DNA from: a virus
Lineage: Duplodnaviria > Caudoviricetes
Length of the DNA stretch: 64,000 bases
Virus record (IMG/VR): IMGVR_UViG_3300029288_000115
Location: 1 to 64,000 of that record
Direction: 5' to 3' (one strand)
Part shown: positions 25,147 through 45,043 of the stretch, one piece after another
Layout: each line of letters starts with the position of its first letter
Numbering within the stretch: the stretch's first letter is position 1
The notes under the pieces: model-generated
Databases searched by the model: none
The model's input: only the letters and a program-made list of their open reading frames with translations
What the model was told of the DNA's origin: nothing
Translations under genes and position numbers: made by a program

Positions 25147-26967
25147 TTACTTATTTTCTTCGTTATCTTCTTCTTCTTCTTCTTCTCCAGTCTCAGGTTC
25201 TTCTTTAGGCACCATTGTATTCTTTTTTAAATCGGCTTCCTTATCTTTTTTCTTCTTTAAGAACTCAGCCCCTCTAGCATATATTCCCCAAGACTTCTTA
25301 ATGGAAGCTTCTACTTTTTCAATATCCCTAGTATAAAAATGATTTAAAAAACTAGCCATCGTTGACACATACATTGGTAATACATCCATTACCAATTGCA
25401 AATGTTTACAATTATGCACAAATACTCCAGCCTCAAGTGGGAAATTATGATTCCTCTCCAGAGAAAGGTCATATACATCGGCTTTTTTTGCTAAAAACTC
25501 AACCTTAACTACCCTATGATTTAATACTTTAACAAATCTTCCATCTGAACTCCTCTTGATGCACAAGGCCTTCTTTCTTAGCTCTGCCCTCTTCAATGGT
25601 GAATTCATAATTTGCGAAATAGTTAAAGCCATTCTAGCAACGCTCTCAGAGGTCTCTTTTGTCTTGCCCCTAAAAAATCCAATATGCCCTAATTGAAAAC
25701 CGGGATTAAATTCCCCTCTTTTCACCCTACATATACAACACATACAACCTTCCTTATGATTCAAAGAGCAACCTCGCAACTTGTTGTACATCATCCTTAC
25801 CCTATCATCGGTTTCCTTTGTTAAACCTTTATTCCAAATCTTAAGCCTTCCATCAAGAAACTTCTTCTTTAACCTTAATCCCCGACAACGTAATCTCTCA
25901 TCCACCTCTTTTGTTAGTCCTTTACTCCAAATTCTATAATTCTTCTTTTTACCACGCATACTTGCCCCATGTAAATCAATATGTCTCTGCTTCACCATTC
26001 TTTGCAAATTACCGGGGTCATTGTTCAGCTTATCAAAATCTTTGTGGTGGTTAACCCAACCAGAAGGTAACGCTCCATCCATAAATTTGGCCACTAAACT
26101 ATGAATATATCTATATCTTCCATCATTTGGGCAATAAACTCTTTTGTAACCTTTCATATTATCTTGGTCCACCTTCTGATATAAAGGCATTAAACTATCT
26201 TGAAACTGTAGGTCTTTGGCTTCCTTGTAACTACCATCCCTAAGCATAAAAGCGTGGTCTGGGGTACAATCAACATACTTGCCATTGTCAAGATGCACCC
26301 GAACAAGCTGAGCATTAAGCCTTGTTTTCTGAACATCAACTATCTTATCGGGTTCTAACTGAAGTGTTTCTGGGTTAATTGAAAGTGTATACTTCCCCAC
26401 ATACTTATCCTTATTCTCTGCCATGTCCTTTATCGTAGGAACACCACCATCTAACAAAGAAACCCTTGTGTCACCAGCAAAACAATGCGCCCCATATTGT
26501 CTGGGATTTCTAATATCCGGGGGCCTGTTTTCAGGCTCAGTATACTTAGCATCTCTACGTGTTAAGATATAAGCCCCACCCCAATACAATTGCGCGGGGC
26601 AAGAGCAATTAATTTCTAAATCTGTAGCCATTAAAAGCTCTCTTCCAAGTTTTCTTAAATCAACTCCTTTATTGTCCTTTTTCCATAACCTTCTATCTCT
26701 AGCAAATCGAGAAATCTGACTTTCTAAATTTGTCCAATTCAAATATACGTCATACCATAAAGAATTCTTTGTACCTGAATGAACTTTAAAATGCCAAACG
26801 GCAGGTCTAACATCCTTTAATCTAACACCCCCTCTGCCTGCAACGGCGTCTACTCTATCATCAAATTCTGGGAATAAATAATTTATAGAAGCCTGCTTAC
26901 GCTTTATATCCTTATAGCCCATTTCATTTATGTTAATAAGACTTTCAATTAATCCCAAATTCAACAT
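25147..26967 (-). CDS. SWIM-type zinc-finger protein (about 248 aa after splicing) containing an intein
   Basis: CSCP...GAH|intein|CKHL gives a CxC..CxH signature. Confidence 0.7.
   Translation of the reverse strand: MLNLGLIESLININEMGYKDIKRKQASINYLFPEFDDRVDAVAGRGGVRLKDVRPAVWHFKVHSGTKNSLWYDVYLNWTNLESQISRFARDRRLWKKDNKGVDLRKLGRELLMATDLEINCSCPAQLYWGGAYILTRRDAKYTEPENRPPDIRNPRQYGAHCFAGDTRVSLLDGGVPTIKDMAENKDKYVGKYTLSINPETLQLEPDKIVDVQKTRLNAQLVRVHLDNGKYVDCTPDHAFMLRDGSYKEAKDLQFQDSLMPLYQKVDQDNMKGYKRVYCPNDGRYRYIHSLVAKFMDGALPSGWVNHHKDFDKLNNDPGNLQRMVKQRHIDLHGASMRGKKKNYRIWSKGLTKEVDERLRCRGLRLKKKFLDGRLKIWNKGLTKETDDRVRMMYNKLRGCSLNHKEGCMCCICRVKRGEFNPGFQLGHIGFFRGKTKETSESVARMALTISQIMNSPLKRAELRKKALCIKRSSDGRFVKVLNHRVVKVEFLAKKADVYDLSLERNHNFPLEAGVFVHNCKHLQLVMDVLPMYVSTMASFLNHFYTRDIEKVEASIKKSWGIYARGAEFLKKKKDKEADLKKNTMVPKEEPETGEEEEEEDNEENK
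25411..26484 (-). mobile_element. Intein (358 aa) with HNH homing endonuclease
   Basis: Starts CFAGDT; block B CTPDH; HHKDFDKLNN HNH; ends VYDL...HNF...VFVHN followed by Cys. Confidence 0.92.
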
Positions 26968-29553: not shown

Positions 29554-32500
29554 CTAAAGACCACTTATATCGCCATAGCAAAACATTCCGGGGTTGGTCA
29601 CTTTGAATCCAGACGCAGATAAGAAACCTTTCTGTGCGTGCAAATCAGAAGTGATTAAAGTCGGAGTTGCAAATAGCGGAATATCACCTTTGTTACTCTT
29701 GTCCAAAGACAAGGGCTTGGTCATTTCTGCCAAGCTCCCTATGTTGCCATAGGGGTCAGACTGTCCCATTAACTCTATTGAGTTATTCTGATTACAGTCG
29801 TTGAACCTTTCTTGTGTGTGAAATTTTAAAAGCTTTTCTTTTAGCTTTCCAATAGCACGTAATTCCTTTGACCAAACTACCAAACATTCCCAACCAAACT
29901 TTTGAAACATTTGTATTCTACTAATATCCGACCCGAGCTTATGATATTTTTCTCCAAATAACTCAATGAGTTTCTTATTCTTTAAATTTGCAAAATCGGG
30001 CGTTTTATTATCTATTACCACAACCTTCTCAACTACATTTAAAATATACTGTTGTGGTAGCATTTTTTGCAACGTCTTAAATAAAAATATCTCTGCTCCA
30101 TTAGGTCTTCTACTAGCAGATAATATTTGTTTCCTAACCACATCTGGTCTTTTCATGCTATTATTCTTTGATATTTTAGCTCTAACTTCGGGTCTCTTAG
30201 CAGGGTTCTTATTCCCACATAGAGAGGGAACACTTATTCCCATTCTACCTTTAGAGATTAAAGCTCCTCGAATCTTGTTCTTTGCAAGACTTTCTTTTAT
30301 CTTCTGTCTAACCTCTAATCTCTTAGCAGGATTTTTGTCTCCAACCATCTGTCCCTTATTAGAATGAGAATGGCCTTTTACATATAAATTATTTTTAAAA
30401 GCCACCCTCTTGCCACACCCACATTTACATAAGGGTGTACTTCCTACACAAGACTTGGCTGCGGATTGTCCACTTTCAGACTCCAAATCTCTCCAAATCT
30501 CTTTTAAAGAATATTTGGAAATCTTGCGGATGTTCCCGCAATTTACAGAATTTTCATTATCAGTCACCTGATAATGCCGCCTATTCTTATTCGACGGCGC
30601 ATAGATAAACCCAGCCATTAAATAACTGTCACCCTTGAAGCCTAAATAAATTCTATTCGTACTTACAAATGGGTCTTGAATTACAAGTCGTCCATCCAAA
30701 GTACCAATAACAGTAGGTCCAGTTGGGGCAACTTTCCCTAAAGACGAATCCGGCTTAAAATGTGGCTCTAACTGCCTTATAACACGAGCTCCATTATTAC
30801 CACAAATTATAAAGGTTGCCATAGCCCTTAAGGTCTTAGCGAAAATGTTGTTACTACCATACTCAAGTCTGTCAATCAACTCATACTTTTTCCATAACCA
30901 CTCCTGACCAGACCCAACCGTGGCACTCCATGTGCCAAAAGTCGTGGCAGCATTCACACCTTCCGCCGCAGCCGCAATTTGTTCTATCCCATAATGATCA
31001 CAATCTGTTACTTTTAAACCTATATTCCATAGGCGGGTAAGTAATTTCTTCTTACCTCTCTGTATTGCTACAGAGTTCAGACTATCTCTTCATCCATTCT
31101 GGATGGTTGCCGTAGCTTTCCGAGTCACCTCAGAAAACGTAGTCGTTACACCATTTCTGTAAAGGATATCTTCTGTCCAAATCTGAAACTGCATATTATA
31201 CTTCAAAGCATATGCTCTAGCAGCCTCAAACTTTAGAATATTAGATTTTTGATCCAATAGGCTTTTTGGTTTAACTTCAATTAAATATATTAAACCATTA
31301 TTTAAGACAACGAATAAATCGGGCAAATAACGATGAATACTTCCGTCCACTCCTTTATAGACAATTACTAAACTTTCAACAGAAACGCTTACCACATCTC
31401 TACAATCATCTATAAGCAATAAAGCACTCTTCTCATAAGTAGAACGATAATGATGAGTAGTTCCTAACCGGGGTAACATAACTATTCCAGATATCCCAGT
31501 ATAGGATTGGCCCTTATTCTTCAAAATTCTTTTTATAGCACCTTTACTCATATTATTTCTACCTTCTAAACTTGTAATAAGGCCTCTATTTCCTCCATTA
31601 TTACCACGAGCCTTTATTTTTGGATTATTCATTAAAGCCCTCTTAATTGACTGTCTTCTTTCTAAGCTTAAAGGAATTCCCATCAAAGATTTAGAAATCT
31701 TCTCTCTAACTTCTGGTCTCTTAGCAGGATTATTTTCGCCAGAATTACTTTTTCTAATAGCTTCATACCATCTATCGTTATTCTTCTGGCCTTTCCTATT
31801 ATGACCGGAAATAAATCGACGTAAAGAGTTAACTTTACACTCAAAGATTTCCCCACAACTGCATTGACAAAATCTTTGTTCCCTATCAACTCGCCACCAA
31901 TAGTTTCCTTTAACAGTCTGGCTCGGTATAGCCTTTTTCAAGGTGTCCACCGAATTAAGCAACTTTTTCATATTTACATTTCTATAAATCGGAGACCATT
32001 TATTAATCTCGAATTTGATTTCCCCACCAAGATACTTAATCAACTCATCTTCAAGAATCATCCCATGAGCTTTCTCCAAATCAATAGCCGCACCCATAGT
32101 GTATCTTGCACGAAGTGGAAAATCCAAAGCGGTAAGACTCTCAGAACTTAAATCCACATTCACTTCAGGTACACCATTAGTCGCCTTCTCATAATTATAC
32201 TGATAGTCAATAGTCGGGGCAATTGGTGTCGCAGATTCAAAAGTTACGTCAACCACACCAGTTGTGTAGACAATTGTGCCATTAGCACCCGTAGATGAAT
32301 CAGTTACCATATGTCCAGCACCATCATCGGTAAAGGTTTCTACTCCGTCAGTAACAACAGCTGTTCCCGCGATAACTGGAAAATATGTTAAGGTTCGAGT
32401 ATAGTGAGTCGAACCAGCAACTCCCATCGCTTCACCATATACCAATTCTGTTGCGAATCTACGAGAGGCCTGACTACCAGCATGACCCGTCTTAGCACCA

Positions 32501-32910
32501 ATTAAAACAGCGTTCTCGGCCAAAGAGCCTTTAGTCTGACCATATACCAGGTCAAGATAAAAGACAGACCCAACACGTCTATCAAGAGCCTGAACCACAG
32601 CGATATTATTCATAACCAAACTCGGCAATATTGCCGCAATAACTGGCAACTGAACGCCAAGAAAAGTTATATTATCCGCATAGGTCGTTTCAAAGATCTT
32701 ACTCTTTTGCCTCATTCCACCCTCGAGTAGGGCATTCTCCAAACACTGTGCTATGTTTCTTTTTTCATTCACAGATACTTCCCTATTCTCATTTTCCTTC
32801 ACATAGGTTTCAACTGCACCAAGGTAAGGACTCCAATCTTGCATCAGAAGATCTCTACGCTCATTAATAGCCATCAAACGCTTCTCAACTACTTGGTTAA
32901 GTTTACTCAT
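29554..32910 (-). CDS. Major capsid protein (gp23-like), spliced from exons 32910-32006, 31000-30594 and 29684-29554; 480 aa
   Basis: Joining the exons restores EIKFEI-DHYG and FIYAP-YIPL, the conserved gp23-type motifs; total 1443 nt in frame. Confidence 0.9.
29685..30593 (-). mobile_element. Group I intron 2 (909 nt) encoding a NUMOD3-like plus Vsr/DUF559-like endonuclease
   Basis: Exon GCCGU pairs with IGS GCGGC (U-G at the splice site); P AAUUGCGGGAA; Q AAUCCGCAGCCAAG; P7 GACUG/CAGUC; terminal G. Confidence 0.9.
31001..32005 (-). mobile_element. Group I intron 1 (1005 nt) encoding a NUMOD3-like plus TnsA-like PD-(D/E)XK endonuclease in frame with exon 1 (stop at 31090)
   Basis: Exon GAGAU pairs with IGS GUCUC; R AACGACUA; S AAGAGAUAGUC; terminal G; YRSTYE...YLPDL...IEVKP. 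Confidence 0.9.
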
Positions 32911-32937: not shown

Positions 32938-35706
32938 TTATTTGCGACGTCCCATAAGGTGGTAGATTAAATTAAGAATCCTCTCCTCTTCCTTACTAGG
33001 GGCGTCTCTATCCGTTCCGACTTTTACCTCGGATAAGCTGTCAAAGTGTAACGAACTTTCTCTTAAAGCGTCTCGGAACCTTTCAATCAATTCTCCAGCC
33101 TCCTCTTCAGAAGAGCTTTGTTCGAGTAGTGCTCGAACTCTTTCTGATAGATTCAGTCCAGAGAATTCTAGTTTACATTCTATAAACTTTTTAATTAGTT
33201 CTTTCTTATGTTGTTCTTCTGCTTTATCTAAATTAGTTTTTAATAGTATTATATCATTATCTTTAGCCACCAAGGATTCAGAAAGCTTCTTTATTTCTTC
33301 TTTACTGGAAGCCTCAATTTCGTCTAATTGGGTCTTTGACTGATCTAAAAGGTCTTGGTACTCTTTCAACTTTACTGTCATTTCTGCCTCAAATTCATCG
33401 CCTTCTTTATTTAATATGTCATTCTTCTCATTCAAAGTTACCATATCATTAGCATAATTTCTCAAAGTCTCATTATATAACTCTTCCAATTTGACTAAAG
33501 ATTCGCTAGCAATAGCCTCATTAATCTTTAAACTGGTTATTAGCTTTCTTGTCGCAGAAAACGATTTATTCTCTTCAGCAAATCTTTTCTTACTCTCACC
33601 TAATAAACCACGTTTACCCATCTCGTCCTCCAACCACATAAGATATATTACATCCCTTCCACCAAAAGCTTTATCATCGCCAACTATTTTATCATAAGTA
33701 TTATATAACTCCTCTAAGTCCTCATTTGAAAGCCCAATAATGTCTTTTCTAGATAACTGCTCATTTAAAATCTTAAGGCCTTTATCTTTAGTAAATCTTA
33801 TTAAATTAGAATAAATAGTCTCTTCATCTTTTCCTATTTGATCGGCTATAAATTTTTCTGCCTCATCTAAAGGAACTTGTAATTGTGCAATAAGCCTCTT
33901 GCTGGCCAAAGACCGCTTTGATTCATCTAATAGGTCATCAACAGTAAGTGCAGCTAAAGCTCGTAACTGCTCACTTAAAATATGTCCTTTAATAAGCTCT
34001 TTAGTGCCCACACGCTTACTACTTTCGAAGTTTATTCCACCAGCAGACTTTGGTCCAAGTCCTAACTTATATTGTAAATAATTGTCAAGACGACCTAAAA
34101 GTTCATATTGCCCAAATCTCTTTTTACCTAAAAACTTTAACACGGCCTTCTCAAATTTCTCAAAATTCTCTCCCCCATCCAACCAATCCCAATAATCCCG
34201 ACCAGAAAGCTTTATTCCAGTCTTTTTACTCAAAGAAGAAGCCATTTTCTCAAAATATAACTTCTCTTCATCTGATAGGCTACTATAATTTTTATCTTCC
34301 TTGGGGTTTGGTTTGCCTTTCTTAGACTCTTTGATTACGCCAAGGCTCTCAGAGGGTTTCTTTGACTCTCCTAATAGGCTTCTAGCCTTATCATCAATGA
34401 CTACTTTCATATCCTCTGTAGGCTCTATCCTCTCACCCGAGGCATTTTCTACGCCCTCAATTTGAATATCATCAATAAATGTTCTGGTTTCACCAGGCTC
34501 TCCTTCCGGTCCTTCACCATAACGAGTGTCAATATGATATGTCACGTAAACCTCAGCCTTATAGGGCGTCAATAAAGTCTCTCCAGGACTTTCTATATCT
34601 GGCTCTTCCATCTCAAAATCAATAGTCATATACTTATCATAATGGTCTACTCTTTCCTTCAAAGTTTCTTTCTTCTTTGTCTTCTTATTAACATCTTTCA
34701 AATCATCCGCACCCGTTTCCTTAGCAGATCGAAGTTTATACTTTCCAGATCTATTATCCTCTAAAGCCTTATGCTCATATTGAGGATTCGTCTTTTTAAA
34801 GTCACTAAACACTTGCTCATAATTTTCTGAACCAAAGGATTTTTTGTTATTATAACACCATTGCAAAAAAGCCTCAATCTCATCTATTTCATCTATATAG
34901 AGTTCTTCTTGAATCATCGGCAAAAGTTCTTCAGGATTTAATGTTCCAAGACTTCCTGCTGCCTGTTTGATAAGCAAATAATTTCTATCACCTAATAGCT
35001 TCATTTCTTTTATGACTTTATTCTCCTCTTTTTCCTTCTTAATGTTTTCCAAGACAACCTTTGCATCATTACATTTTAAGGATTCTAATATACATATGGC
35101 ATACTTCGAATCAATTTTATTTGATTCCAAACCATTCTTAACTATGCCAACAATATCTCTTTCAACTCTAGCAGGATACACACCAACAGTACTTGGATCA
35201 GCAGTAAAATCAGTCGTTATATACTTATAAGATTCTGGAATGACCTTAAAGTGCTTTCCTAATACTTCATCCTCAGCTTCTTCTAATTCACCTTCGGCAC
35301 GCGTAGAAACTCCAGCCTGACAACCCGCCAATAATAAAGTATTTACTATTCTTCCATAAGGAGTATCCAAAATATCATACTCCTGCATAACCTTCTTTCC
35401 ATCTTCAGTTATCCACATCTTTGTAATTGTATGAGACACCTTCTCAAGATTACTTTGTACGTCATCCTTAGGGTGCTCTGCATGACCAAATAGAGTTCTA
35501 CTTACCATCTTCTCTTGGAGCTCAGTATTTTCCAAAACCTTATCCCAAACCGCACGTTCATAAACCCTTTTATTTGCATTCAACATTCCAATATTACAAA
35601 TGGGGTAACTTACACGACATAACACTCCTGTAGGAAGCTTTGAAGCGTCGCTTTCTACAAGCATAAACTTTCCATCGATTCGTTCATTTAAGTTCTTTAA
35701 AGACAT
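32938..35706 (-). CDS. Prohead protease (gp21-like) fused to internal domains and a C-terminal scaffold-like coiled coil
   Basis: NANKRVY, GHAEHP, VSH, GVSTRAEG, DFTADPS within the first ~180 aa; coiled-coil C-terminus; directly upstream of the capsid gene. Confidence 0.85.
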   Translation of the reverse strand: MSLKNLNERIDGKFMLVESDASKLPTGVLCRVSYPICNIGMLNANKRVYERAVWDKVLENTELQEKMVSRTLFGHAEHPKDDVQSNLEKVSHTITKMWITEDGKKVMQEYDILDTPYGRIVNTLLLAGCQAGVSTRAEGELEEAEDEVLGKHFKVIPESYKYITTDFTADPSTVGVYPARVERDIVGIVKNGLESNKIDSKYAICILESLKCNDAKVVLENIKKEKEENKVIKEMKLLGDRNYLLIKQAAGSLGTLNPEELLPMIQEELYIDEIDEIEAFLQWCYNNKKSFGSENYEQVFSDFKKTNPQYEHKALEDNRSGKYKLRSAKETGADDLKDVNKKTKKKETLKERVDHYDKYMTIDFEMEEPDIESPGETLLTPYKAEVYVTYHIDTRYGEGPEGEPGETRTFIDDIQIEGVENASGERIEPTEDMKVVIDDKARSLLGESKKPSESLGVIKESKKGKPNPKEDKNYSSLSDEEKLYFEKMASSLSKKTGIKLSGRDYWDWLDGGENFEKFEKAVLKFLGKKRFGQYELLGRLDNYLQYKLGLGPKSAGGINFESSKRVGTKELIKGHILSEQLRALAALTVDDLLDESKRSLASKRLIAQLQVPLDEAEKFIADQIGKDEETIYSNLIRFTKDKGLKILNEQLSRKDIIGLSNEDLEELYNTYDKIVGDDKAFGGRDVIYLMWLEDEMGKRGLLGESKKRFAEENKSFSATRKLITSLKINEAIASESLVKLEELYNETLRNYANDMVTLNEKNDILNKEGDEFEAEMTVKLKEYQDLLDQSKTQLDEIEASSKEEIKKLSESLVAKDNDIILLKTNLDKAEEQHKKELIKKFIECKLEFSGLNLSERVRALLEQSSSEEEAGELIERFRDALRESSLHFDSLSEVKVGTDRDAPSKEEERILNLIYHLMGRRK

Positions 35707-42307: not shown

Positions 42308-45043
42308 TTATTTCTTTCCTCGGTCGTTTTTGGCTACGGTTGCAACCATCTGCCGAGTTTTCTTATCAAATGCGATTTTAGTATTTTTGTATCGACTTTC
42401 CCATAAATTATTTAGGGCCCTTTGCCTGTTTTTCTTACCTTCTTTTATTGAGGACTTTATCCTGTCTATGGGCAAAAGAGCCTTTAAATCTGTATTCATA
42501 AGGGCGCGATGGGCCTCCGCAATTATATGCTTCTTCTCCAAAGGTATCTGCTTATCCACGGCTTTTAACATCTGATTAAGGTCAAAATCCTCTAACTTTA
42601 AAATCTTATCATTAAAATATTTTAATAGTTTTAAACGATCCACATTTGGTCCTATAGTGTCAACCACCAAATCTACTAAATCCTTAACAACGGTAACCTC
42701 CTTTTCTAAAGTTAATGATAACTCTTCTTCTTCTGCAGAAGATGTTTCTGACATATTAACTTGAAAAGTTTTTGGATCTGGGTCTAAACCCATATACGCT
42801 AAATGAATCTGACATAGACGTGTCTGCGTGTCGATTAAAGCCCTTTGTACCCGACGAGCCTCTCTAGCAAATCTAATATCATAGCGCTCTATTGCGGATC
42901 GGCCAATACCTTGTGGCATCTCTTCAACATATCCCCCTAATAACTGTAAAGGGGTCTTTAAGGCACAAGCTAACTGGTTTCTCTGCTCTGTTAAATCAGC
43001 TATAAATCTAATATCGGTTTCGCCACCAAGTTTTTCTATGGCTATATTATTAACATCTCCAAATACCGGTAATATAATATCTTCATTTACCCCCAAAGGC
43101 GAGTTATGCACAAATACTCCAGCTTTTAATGGAAAATTATGATTACGTTCTGTAGTAATGTCATAAGTGTCTTCTTTAAAATTTAGCCTCTCCACCCTTA
43201 CTACTTTGTGATTTAAAGCTCCTACAAACCTTCCAAGCTCATCTCTTATCCTACTTGGTACATTCCTCAGAGAATAACGTCTTCCTGTAAGAGCTCTTAT
43301 TTGATTCTCTCTATACTTAGGTTGCGCCCACAAACCTTTTAGATTCTCACTCTGCATAGTAGCAAAAGCTTCCTTATCTGTATACAGCCTTTTATTCTTC
43401 TGTTTTGAACCAAGCTTACATCCCATCTTGCCTTTTACTTTAGTTCTAAACTCTAAAGTTGCCCAGCGATCTTTTGCCCTCTTGGAAATACTTTGTCCCT
43501 TTTCGGCTCTTTCCTCTTCTGAATAGCCTAACCATCTCTCTTTCCCTAACTTAGAATGATATCTCCAATGCTCATTATTTCCCATAAGCTTAAGATTACT
43601 AGGGTCATTATTTTCTTTATCAAAATCTATGTGATGTATAGTATCCCCTTTCTTTAGCTTGCCGTAAACATACTTTCCTACTAGTCTATGCTCATGGCAA
43701 AATAGATTACTACAGGGATTATACACCAATCTATACCCCACCAGACCCTTAATGGCTACCTTCGAATAATAAGGCATTAAAGACTCTCCTCCTACTAGAT
43801 TCTCTGCCTTCTTAAACTCTCCATTACGAAGCATAAAAGGGTGGTCTGGGGTGCAATCGATATACTTACCATTGTCAAGATGCACCCGAACAAGCTGAGC
43901 ATTAAGCCTTGTTTTCTGAACTTGAATTATCTTATCTGGTTCTAACTGCAAGGTCTTTGAGTTTACAGAAAGTATATATAGACCTTTATACGTCTCAGGG
44001 CTCTCTGCCATTTCCTTTATGCAAGGCTCTTCTCCATTTAACAAAATTAACTGCATATTCCCTCTCAAACAGTATTTTTCATCATAATAGGGTGAGTCAG
44101 CGTCTAAGGAAATAGCTCTAGCCCTCTGTAGTAAAGTCTTATATTCATCTATCATGTCAATAACGGCCTCACTATTCGTATTATCCACCTGTACCTTATA
44201 CAAATACCTTAAAATACCTTTGGATAATCTGGCGAGCATAATTGAGTCTTCCGTTAATCGAAGGCGTTTATAAATTGGCATAGCATTGGTAAGTACAGAG
44301 GTTCCATAGCGAGAAGTAACTCTGCGAGTATCCGGTGCCATAATGTTTACAGTGGTATACTCGATATAGGTGGGGTCATCGGCTTGAGGCCTTTTCTTCT
44401 TAGCTCCTAATATCCTACAATGCACGTAGTCCCAAGGGGGAAGTAGTTTTCTGCTTCTTCCCAGGGTTGCTCCTAAAGGTGTCTCAAAAAATCCTATAAG
44501 ACGACCATTATAATCCAATCGACTAATGTTCAAGGGATGATTATCATCATCAACCGCTACCACCCCCGTTCCAGGCATTCCATCAATCTTTATGAATAAA
44601 TCACCATACGCCGCCGTTGTCCAAGCCCAATCAAAAATTCTTTCTTCTATCCCAATTCGGTCCAATAGCTTTGTTAACTCATTCTGTACTTTTCTATTCT
44701 GAGATGTAACCCAAACCGTTGCACCGTGAAGCTTAGAATAGGTTGTTGCCACCCCGGCAAATAAATCTACAGCTGCTCCCATCAATGGATGTAAAATAGC
44801 TCTATCCACCTCTTTATAGAAACCACCCCGATCCATGCTCACTTGGGTGTTCTTATAGATCATTCGAGTTAAATCTTGTGGGGCTATACCAAGTCTTTTA
44901 AATGTAGCTAAGTCATCAGGGGACAACTTGGATAACATCTGAACATCTTCGGCGGGGACTTCAGTGGGAGCTCTTCCTAATCCAATCTTTAATAGTAAAT
45001 TCTTAACGTTCGTTGCTATACTCAAAGGCGTCCTTTCATTCAA
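42308..45043 (-). CDS. Portal protein (gp20-like, about 588 aa after splicing) containing an intein
   Basis: RLTEDSIMLARL...EDIILP...IEKLGG...ALKTP...DIRFAR. Confidence 0.85.
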   Translation of the reverse strand: MNERTPLSIATNVKNLLLKIGLGRAPTEVPAEDVQMLSKLSPDDLATFKRLGIAPQDLTRMIYKNTQVSMDRGGFYKEVDRAILHPLMGAAVDLFAGVATTYSKLHGATVWVTSQNRKVQNELTKLLDRIGIEERIFDWAWTTAAYGDLFIKIDGMPGTGVVAVDDDNHPLNISRLDYNGRLIGFFETPLGATLGRSRKLLPPWDYVHCRILGAKKKRPQADDPTYIEYTTVNIMAPDTRRVTSRYGTSVLTNAMPIYKRLRLTEDSIMLARLSKGILRYLYKVQVDNTNSEAVIDMIDEYKTLLQRARAISLDADSPYYDEKYCLRGNMQLILLNGEEPCIKEMAESPETYKGLYILSVNSKTLQLEPDKIIQVQKTRLNAQLVRVHLDNGKYIDCTPDHPFMLRNGEFKKAENLVGGESLMPYYSKVAIKGLVGYRLVYNPCSNLFCHEHRLVGKYVYGKLKKGDTIHHIDFDKENNDPSNLKLMGNNEHWRYHSKLGKERWLGYSEEERAEKGQSISKRAKDRWATLEFRTKVKGKMGCKLGSKQKNKRLYTDKEAFATMQSENLKGLWAQPKYRENQIRALTGRRYSLRNVPSRIRDELGRFVGALNHKVVRVERLNFKEDTYDITTERNHNFPLKAGVFVHNSPLGVNEDIILPVFGDVNNIAIEKLGGETDIRFIADLTEQRNQLACALKTPLQLLGGYVEEMPQGIGRSAIERYDIRFAREARRVQRALIDTQTRLCQIHLAYMGLDPDPKTFQVNMSETSSAEEEELSLTLEKEVTVVKDLVDLVVDTIGPNVDRLKLLKYFNDKILKLEDFDLNQMLKAVDKQIPLEKKHIIAEAHRALMNTDLKALLPIDRIKSSIKEGKKNRQRALNNLWESRYKNTKIAFDKKTRQMVATVAKNDRGKK
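43103..44071 (-). mobile_element. Intein (323 aa) with HNH endonuclease
   Basis: Starts CLRG; CTPDH; HHIDFDKENN; ends TYDI...HNF...VFVHN followed by Ser. Confidence 0.92.

Follow-up and report, generated by a model that had tools for sequence, protein, structure and literature searches.

A Gp23-type major capsid gene of an uncultivated landfill phage split by two predicted mobile group I introns, each with a homing-endonuclease gene

Introduction

How can a phage make one intact major capsid protein from a gene that is interrupted twice by nuclease-coding sequence? This question is raised by a stretch of 64,000 nucleotides (nt), positions 1 to 64,000 of IMG/VR virus record IMGVR_UViG_3300029288_000115 (Duplodnaviria; Caudoviricetes), which was analysed as a whole and is called the window here. 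It comes from an uncultivated landfill phage whose Gp23-type major capsid gene lies on the minus strand as three exons and two inserts. A listing of open reading frames (ORFs) presents this region as two long chimeric minus-strand frames: one of 606 amino acids (aa) at 31090-32910, with capsid sequence at its start and a nuclease at its end, and one of 467 aa at 29554-30957, with capsid sequence at both ends and a nuclease between. An earlier note, made from the sequence alone, proposed that the inserts are group I introns, each with an endonuclease. This proposal is supported by the colinearity of the exons, the ribozyme anatomy, ORF-less homologues at the same sites that Rfam recognizes as group I introns, covariation and the folds of the endonucleases. 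We therefore conclude, with a probability of roughly 93%, that two mobile group I introns, both with a homing-endonuclease gene inside, divide the capsid gene; the occurrence of splicing and homing themselves we infer from anatomy and comparison.

Results

The joined exons encode a complete Gp23-type protein

The Pfam profile of Gp23 (PF07068, cut-off 24.4 bits) matches exon 1 over profile positions 7-188 (52.7 bits, E 6e-14) and exon 2 over positions 201-323 (50.2 bits, E 3.5e-13), and the three exons span consecutive stretches of this profile. When the exons are joined by script (32910-32006 + 31000-30594 + 29684-29554), the resulting coding sequence of 1443 nt specifies 480 aa and a stop, with zero internal stops, in agreement with the 480-aa gp23-like product predicted by the earlier note. 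The junctions that it predicted are also present in the sequence: exon 1 ends in GAG AT at 32006 and exon 2 begins with T GAT at 31000, while exon 2 ends in CCG T at 30594 and exon 3 begins with AT ATT at 29684. Both junctions thus fall within codons of conserved residues, AT/T for Ile302 and T/AT for Tyr438. Since these residues exist only after nucleotide-precise joining, protein splicing is ruled out. Alignment of the 480-aa product with nine intron-free homologues (479-488 aa; 55-69% identity over exon 1), the comparison on which the earlier note had staked its reading, is free of gaps at both junctions and leaves that reading standing. The junction-spanning peptides are FEIDHYG and YAPYIPLF, in the alignment contexts GGEIKFEIDHYGI and FIYAPYIPLFATP, respectively. 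Base 32005 is also a T, and the boundary of intron 1 could therefore slide by one base with the same spliced mRNA either way; only the boundary given here provides a terminal G. A core-less mini-intron was also sought in the capsid exons and none was found, the exons aligning to homologues with no additional gap that contains a stop.

Gene callers break this locus into fragments, which could be taken to mean that free-standing endonuclease genes have divided the capsid into separately translated, co-assembling pieces, as in nrdA of Aeromonas phage Aeh1. However, exon 2 and the 43-codon exon 3 begin without a start codon or ribosome-binding site, both junctions are intracodon and both ORFs are flanked by ribozyme cores. 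We give a gene in pieces almost no credence.

Both inserts show the anatomy of group I ribozymes

In both introns the helices P1, P2, P3, P4, P5, P6/P6a, P7, P8, P9 (with a GCAA tetraloop), P9.1 and P9.2 are fully paired and follow one another in canonical order. The ribozyme features described in the earlier note, its P/Q/R/S elements among them, are all in the sequence: P1 contains a U·G pair in intron 1 (GAGAU/GUCUC) and in intron 2 (GCCGU/GCGGC), the introns end in G at 31001 and 29685, and P7 reads GACUA/UAGUC in intron 1 versus GACUG/CAGUC in intron 2. The P7.1 hairpin, typical of IA introns, is present in intron 1 but absent from intron 2. The J3/4 and J8/7 consensus appears in the cmscan alignments as AAUUGCGGGAA...CCGCAGCCAAG and AAGAGAUAGUC.

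The covariance-model search proposed by the earlier note gave a divided result. At gathering threshold (50 bits for RF00028) Rfam has no match in the 64-kb window. At the E-value threshold RF00028 matches the 5' half of intron 2 (40.6 bits), the 3' half of intron 1 (32.4 bits) and the 3' half of intron 2 (28.0 bits); these three matches (E 4e-8, 1e-5 and 2e-4) coincide exactly with the ends of the introns on either side of the ORFs, and at this threshold there are no others within the 64 kb. We ascribe the low scores to the ORF, roughly 630-750 nt long, that interrupts each intron. Homologues without an ORF at these two sites, described below, do pass the gathering score.

Homologous introns at the same sites support the group I assignment

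A profile built from the capsid-family alignment retrieved 35 IMG/VR loci, onto each of which the spliced protein was mapped; a search with the exon-1 protein as a single sequence had retrieved nothing. The capsid gene is interrupted in five of these 35 loci. The most informative is the related phage L003, which has ORF-less inserts of 297 and 312 nt exactly at the two sites of the window. The first (L003:4708-5004) scores 53.1 bits with RF00028 and is 87% identical to intron 1 in the aligned core; the second (L003:5743-6054, here L003_C) scores 67.4 bits and is 78% identical to intron 2 in the aligned core. Other relatives score 69.6 and 73.1 bits. The surplus of the window introns over the L003 copies lies mainly at one spot per intron, the P6 loop. 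All 13 related introns compared, which occupy six insertion sites, have an exon-final U and an intron-final G. An automated scan found a guide complementary to the intron's own exon near the 5' end in 11 of the 13; for the remaining two, L001 and L269_s438, it proposed spurious sites, and by eye only 4-bp guides are seen. At residue 438, the site of intron 2, a synonymous exon change (CCG in the window versus CCC in L003_C) is mirrored in the guide, giving GCCGU/GCGGC versus GCCCU/GGGGC.

Covariation statistics were computed on the 3' domains; for P3, P4 and P6 the comparison was visual and scripted. The intron 1 family, represented by seven sequences, offered 43 pairs in the 3' domain, with 99.7% of cells paired versus at most 47.5% for slid partners; 31 of the 43 pairs show changes on both sides, and none of 500 shuffles reached the observed values. 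In the intron 2 family (three sequences) compensatory changes occur in 14 of 37 pairs. Two conserved core motifs were also tried as scan queries and rejected: each hit more than 100 unrelated viral loci, giant-virus bins included, and represents generic group I core sequence. A separate observation is that intron 1-like sequence, 68-78% identical over the 3' domain, occurs at L011:7498-7721 and L022:5942-6090, just downstream of intact capsid genes and presumably inside the next gene, which indicates that this intron family is not confined to the capsid gene.

Intron 2 deserves a separate word, because its 909 nt amount to 303 codons without a stop, in frame with both exons, so that exon 2, intron 2 and exon 3 form a single 467-aa ORF. 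On this ground the insert could be removed as protein or retained as an in-frame insertion domain. The ORF-less L003_C (312 nt) is likewise stop-free in frame, the same phage has what look like true inteins in two other ORFs, the portal gene among them, and a stop-free in-frame homing insertion is known from a phage methylase (PMC11855218). Against this, the junction cuts the conserved Tyr438 codon and in-frame reading would exchange the Tyr for Ser...Asp; Pfam finds no Intein_splicing domain in either capsid insert and thus no Hint domain in intron 2, although such a domain is readily found in the portal; the insert has a complete group I core with covariation; and the homologous intron of L269 (277 nt) has six in-frame stops, so the open frame is not conserved. 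We consider removal or retention at the protein level very improbable. The possibility that the stop-free frame is a selected trait of the site-438 intron family likewise fails in L269, and we do not regard the open frame as selected.

The two introns encode endonucleases of different families

Endonuclease 1 matches the TnsA-like N domain PF08722 at 48.3 bits (cut-off 26.5), and its AlphaFold model matches TnsA structures 1t0f/1f1z in Foldseek (E 3e-7). The family alignment shows no variation at D218, E232 and K234 or in the PD...IEVKP motif. Sequence and model thus identify it as a predicted nuclease of the TnsA-like PD-(D/E)xK family, with a restriction-endonuclease-like fold. Over 31090-31600 this TnsA-like endonuclease also matches phrog_218 and phrog_14892 (E 3e-18), which carry the PHROG label 'head closure'; this label is probably a mis-annotation inherited from endonuclease genes within head-gene introns.

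Endonuclease 2 gave only weak matches as a single sequence, to DUF559 (E 0.009) and Vsr. Searched against PDB as a family profile, it matches 3r3p, the catalytic domain of I-Bth0305I (E 3.3e-8), and Vsr (E 3e-6), and its model superposes on 3r3p with a template-modelling (TM) score of 0.72. E167, D199 and H217 are retained, and its homologues match PF07460, one of them also PF04480. The profile and model matches to 3r3p place endonuclease 2, as a predicted I-Bth0305I/Vsr-like enzyme, in the EDxHD family. The two endonucleases have in common an N-terminal module consisting of CxCxCG...GH and NUMOD3, and they differ in their nuclease domains, which suggests that one DNA-binding module has been combined with two catalytic folds for the same target gene. 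The predicted models of both are of low confidence in the C-terminal tails and N-terminal leaders. Throughout both families the ORF overlaps the ribozyme core, and its C-terminal tail is the translation of conserved ribozyme strands (STTTSLQEIVEATVA and RFNDCNQN); in intron 1 the 3' end of the ORF overlaps P6', P7, P7.1, P3' and P8.

The earlier note assigned an endonuclease to each intron, and both are indeed present, but the frame of endonuclease 2 is continuous with exons 2 and 3, and no ATG or stop codon belongs to this endonuclease alone. Endonuclease 2 also lacks an N-terminal region of about 100 aa found in its closest homologues, which have their own start Met. In homologues P0123 and P0126 the reading frame likewise passes from the endonuclease into exon 3. 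Candidate starts for endonuclease 2 are TTG at 30486-30484 and GTG at 30567-30565. In the extended P5 of intron 2 (30486-30510, minus strand) there is a short tandem duplication, GAGAUUUGGAGAGAUUUGGAG, that places a GGAG motif 4 nt before the in-frame TTG, and this TTG is the best candidate for an independent start. Endonuclease 1 is in frame with exon 1 and has a sole in-frame ATG, at 31971, without an obvious ribosome-binding site.

These features bear on whether one or both introns, although genuine in origin, have stopped splicing, leaving a capsid pseudogene in a defective or decaying phage genome. The contig is a metagenomic assembly with an estimated completeness of 67%, and the missing start and N-terminal region of endonuclease 2 resemble early decay in the homing-endonuclease life cycle. 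However, the core helices are all perfectly paired and differ from those of relatives by compensatory changes, the frame is intact in all three exons with 55-69% identity to intact homologues, and both endonucleases retain their catalytic residues. A decayed gene is in our judgement improbable, and two mobile introns in a functional capsid gene remain the better explanation.

The capsid clade is an intron hotspot

Our comparison of loci and truncated database proteins places insertions in this capsid clade at about residues 96, 278, 281-282, 284, 297-298, 302, 339, 433 and 438, sites at which the codons of the gene are most conserved. LLNSV(D/E), the translation of P3-J3/4-P4, is the C-terminus of many of the truncated proteins. 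With at least nine insertion sites and, in related phages, up to four or more introns in one capsid gene, the clade is an intron hotspot. The gene of L003 has three introns, and in L269 (6674-8516, minus strand) the last 240 codons, those that are visible, are interrupted by no fewer than four group I introns without ORFs (267, 295, 296 and 277 nt). In both phages two full introns, at sites 433 and 438, are separated by a micro-exon of only 15 nt, which has to be both the 3' exon for one intron and the P1 substrate for the next. A nearly identical relative of L269, L019, lacks the fourth intron, at site 438, and has CCT instead of CCG beside the empty site, while one intron occurs in a single metagenome both with its endonuclease gene (L267) and without it (L269). 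These pairs are snapshots of gain or loss of an intron or of an endonuclease gene.

Table 1. Positions of the capsid exons, introns, ribozyme parts and endonucleases (window coordinates unless a locus is named)
Feature	Coordinates	Strand	Description
Capsid exon 1	32006..32910	-	ATG at 32910; 301 codons + 2 nt; last bases GAGAT; 223 homologues; colinear alignment
Group I intron 1	31001..32005	-	1005 nt; P7.1 hairpin; endonuclease ORF in P6a loop; terminal G at 31001
Intron 1, 5' core	31913..32005	-	Guide GUCUC 31996-31992; P2; P3 5' strand 31963-31958; P4/P5/P4' 31953-31923; P6/P6a 5' strand
Endonuclease 1 ORF	31090..31971	-	293 aa + stop; CxCxCG zinc-finger-like motif; one NUMOD3-like motif; TnsA-like PD-(D/E)xK nuclease (predicted)
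Intron 1, 3' core	31001..31160	-	P6a'; P7 31144-31140; P7.1; P3' 31111-31106; P8; P7' 31084-31080
Intron 1, end part of 3' core			P9 with GCAA loop; P9.1; P9.2; conserved tail AGUAACAG
Capsid exon 2	30594..31000	-	407 nt; PF07068 match; colinear alignment
Group I intron 2	29685..30593	-	909 nt; without P7.1; endonuclease ORF in P6a loop; terminal G at 29685
Intron 2, 5' core	30446..30593	-	Guide GCGGC 30580-30576; P2; P3 5' strand; P4; extended P5; P4'; P6/P6a 5' strand
Endonuclease 2, domain-coding part	29818..30432	-	CxCxCG motif; two NUMOD3 motifs; Vsr-like (EDxHD family) nuclease (predicted)
Intron 2, 3' core	29685..29817	-	P6a'; P7 29799-29795; P3'; P8; P7' 29763-29759
Intron 2, end part of 3' core			P9 with GCAA loop; P9.1; P9.2; AGUAACA tail
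Capsid exon 3	29554..29684	-	43 codons + TAG stop; colinear with homologue C-termini
Introns at sites 433 and 438 with 15-nt micro-exon	L003:5397-6054; L269, reverse-complement 1139-1726	- (L269)	TCATTTACGCGCCCT in L003; TTATTTACTGCCCGT in L269

Neighbouring genes

Upstream of the capsid gene an ORF of 922 aa (32938-35706, minus strand) begins with a prohead protease domain (PF03420, phrog_207) and continues into a long C-terminal extension. The T4-like portal gene (PF07230; 42308-45043, minus strand) is a 911-aa ORF with an insert at about 43103-44047, in which the intein splicing domain PF14890 covers residues 333-647 and an HNH endonuclease lies inside; this insert has the appearance of a true intein and belongs to the head module that also holds the capsid introns. 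A further ORF of 606 aa (25147-26967, minus strand) contains an intein at about 25411-26463, with a splicing domain at residues 169-519 and an HNH_3 endonuclease.

Discussion

The evidence presented here favours a gene that would be expressed through RNA splicing. In such a scheme the capsid gene would be transcribed into one precursor RNA that holds two group I ribozymes. Each guide sequence would pair with the last 5 nt of its upstream exon, with the U·G pair at the cleavage site, the P3-P8 core would fold, and two guanosine-dependent transesterifications would follow, splicing ending at the terminal G. Only the doubly spliced mRNA would encode the 480-aa Gp23-type capsid, the codons of Ile302 and Tyr438 being rebuilt at the junctions. 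In mixed infections the endonucleases may cut intron-less capsid alleles at the conserved target, after which the intron would be copied in by homing.

Several observations weigh against this interpretation and should be considered together. The introns of the window remain under the Rfam gathering score (40.6, 32.4 and 28.0 versus 50 bits). The frame of exon 1 stays open for 305 codons into intron 1, up to the endonuclease's own stop, and the exon frame runs stop-free through all 909 nt of intron 2. Both endonuclease ORFs lack an independent start with a convincing ribosome-binding site. In experiments on T4 nrdB and td, attributed to Ohman-Heden in 1993, ribosomes entering an intron are said to hinder its folding, and for this reason open frames are unusual for a highly expressed gene.

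In both introns the endonuclease ORF continues the reading frame of the upstream exon, and from the splice site to the endonuclease domain no stop codon intervenes. One way to account for this is that the endonucleases have given up independent translation signals and are made only by ribosomes that run from unspliced capsid precursor into the intron. Such run-on from the upstream exon occurs for some mitochondrial intron ORFs. We regard this mode of expression as unlikely for the present introns, but if it were true, the dosage of the endonucleases would depend on how much of the most abundant late mRNA stays unspliced, and unspliced intron 2 would give rise to a capsid-endonuclease-capsid fusion protein.

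Like those proposed here, the td, nrdB and nrdD introns of T4 are group I introns of a phage in which an ORF loops out from the core, and they are mobile by homing. Their host genes, however, serve nucleotide metabolism, their endonucleases are of the GIY-YIG or HNH type, and the reading frame meets a stop soon after the 5' splice site. The earlier note stated that phage group I introns are mostly described in DNA and nucleotide metabolism genes, and it overstated the novelty: introns in phage capsid and other late genes have been published (PMC3706429, PMC7886860, PMC12880540). The major head protein gene of Lactococcus phage Tuc2009 carries a group I intron (PMC3706429; PMC2504315), and splicing of the capsid intron of mycobacteriophage LittleE in vivo was shown by reverse-transcription PCR and N-terminal protein sequencing (PMC3706429). 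In both phages, as predicted here, a self-splicing intron resides in the gene of the most abundant virion protein, U being the last base of the exon and G that of the intron; the LittleE intron also encodes a homing endonuclease. In contrast to our locus, however, each of them has a single intron in an HK97-type siphovirus capsid gene, whereas here there are two in a Gp23-type gene, and the LittleE endonuclease is of the HNH type and antisense, whereas those found here are PD-(D/E)xK-type and EDxHD enzymes by prediction, encoded on the sense strand in P6.

Several group I introns within one essential late gene have also been seen before. The major capsid protein genes of crAss-like phages (Delta and Zeta groups) are split by introns into five pieces (PMC7886860), the intron-laden Jug phages have metatranscriptome reads that back splicing at about half of the predicted introns (PMC12880540), and orf142 of Twort has three introns. 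The crAss-like and Jug phages are, like ours, uncultivated, and their introns confound annotation. These cases differ from ours in phage lineage and capsid family, and the present clade has at least nine insertion sites and a recurring 15-nt micro-exon. In the literature that we searched there is no prior description of this capsid clade. The closest counterpart of endonuclease 2 is I-Bth0305I (PMC3239194), an EDxHD enzyme of Bacillus phage 0305phi8-36 that is encoded within an intron of recA. I-Bth0305I shares with endonuclease 2 the N-terminal NUMOD motifs, a C-terminal Vsr-like nuclease and a location in a phage group I intron. It differs in having its ORF in P5 and NUMOD2 motifs, whereas the ORF of endonuclease 2 is in P6, has NUMOD3 and CxCxCG and is without its own start and stop. 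Capsid-gene group I introns are thus already published, and the present locus is a well-supported further case.

The finding also concerns annotation. As the earlier note anticipated, public annotation gives a chimera here, the 467-aa exon 2-intron 2-exon 3 read-through P0121, which is labelled Gp23 only, and roughly one in ten close database homologues is an exon-1 fragment with an intron read-through end such as LLNSVD. Such chimeric or truncated Gp23 entries contaminate capsid alignments, phylogenies and marker-gene surveys. At the same time, this clade provides useful study material, including natural pairs with and without the endonuclease gene and two nuclease families that share one DNA-binding module in the same gene, while its 15-nt micro-exons test the limits of splice-site recognition. 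In summary, this locus adds a well-documented case, supported by comparison, to a growing picture of the capsid gene as a hotspot of mobile group I introns in uncultivated phages.

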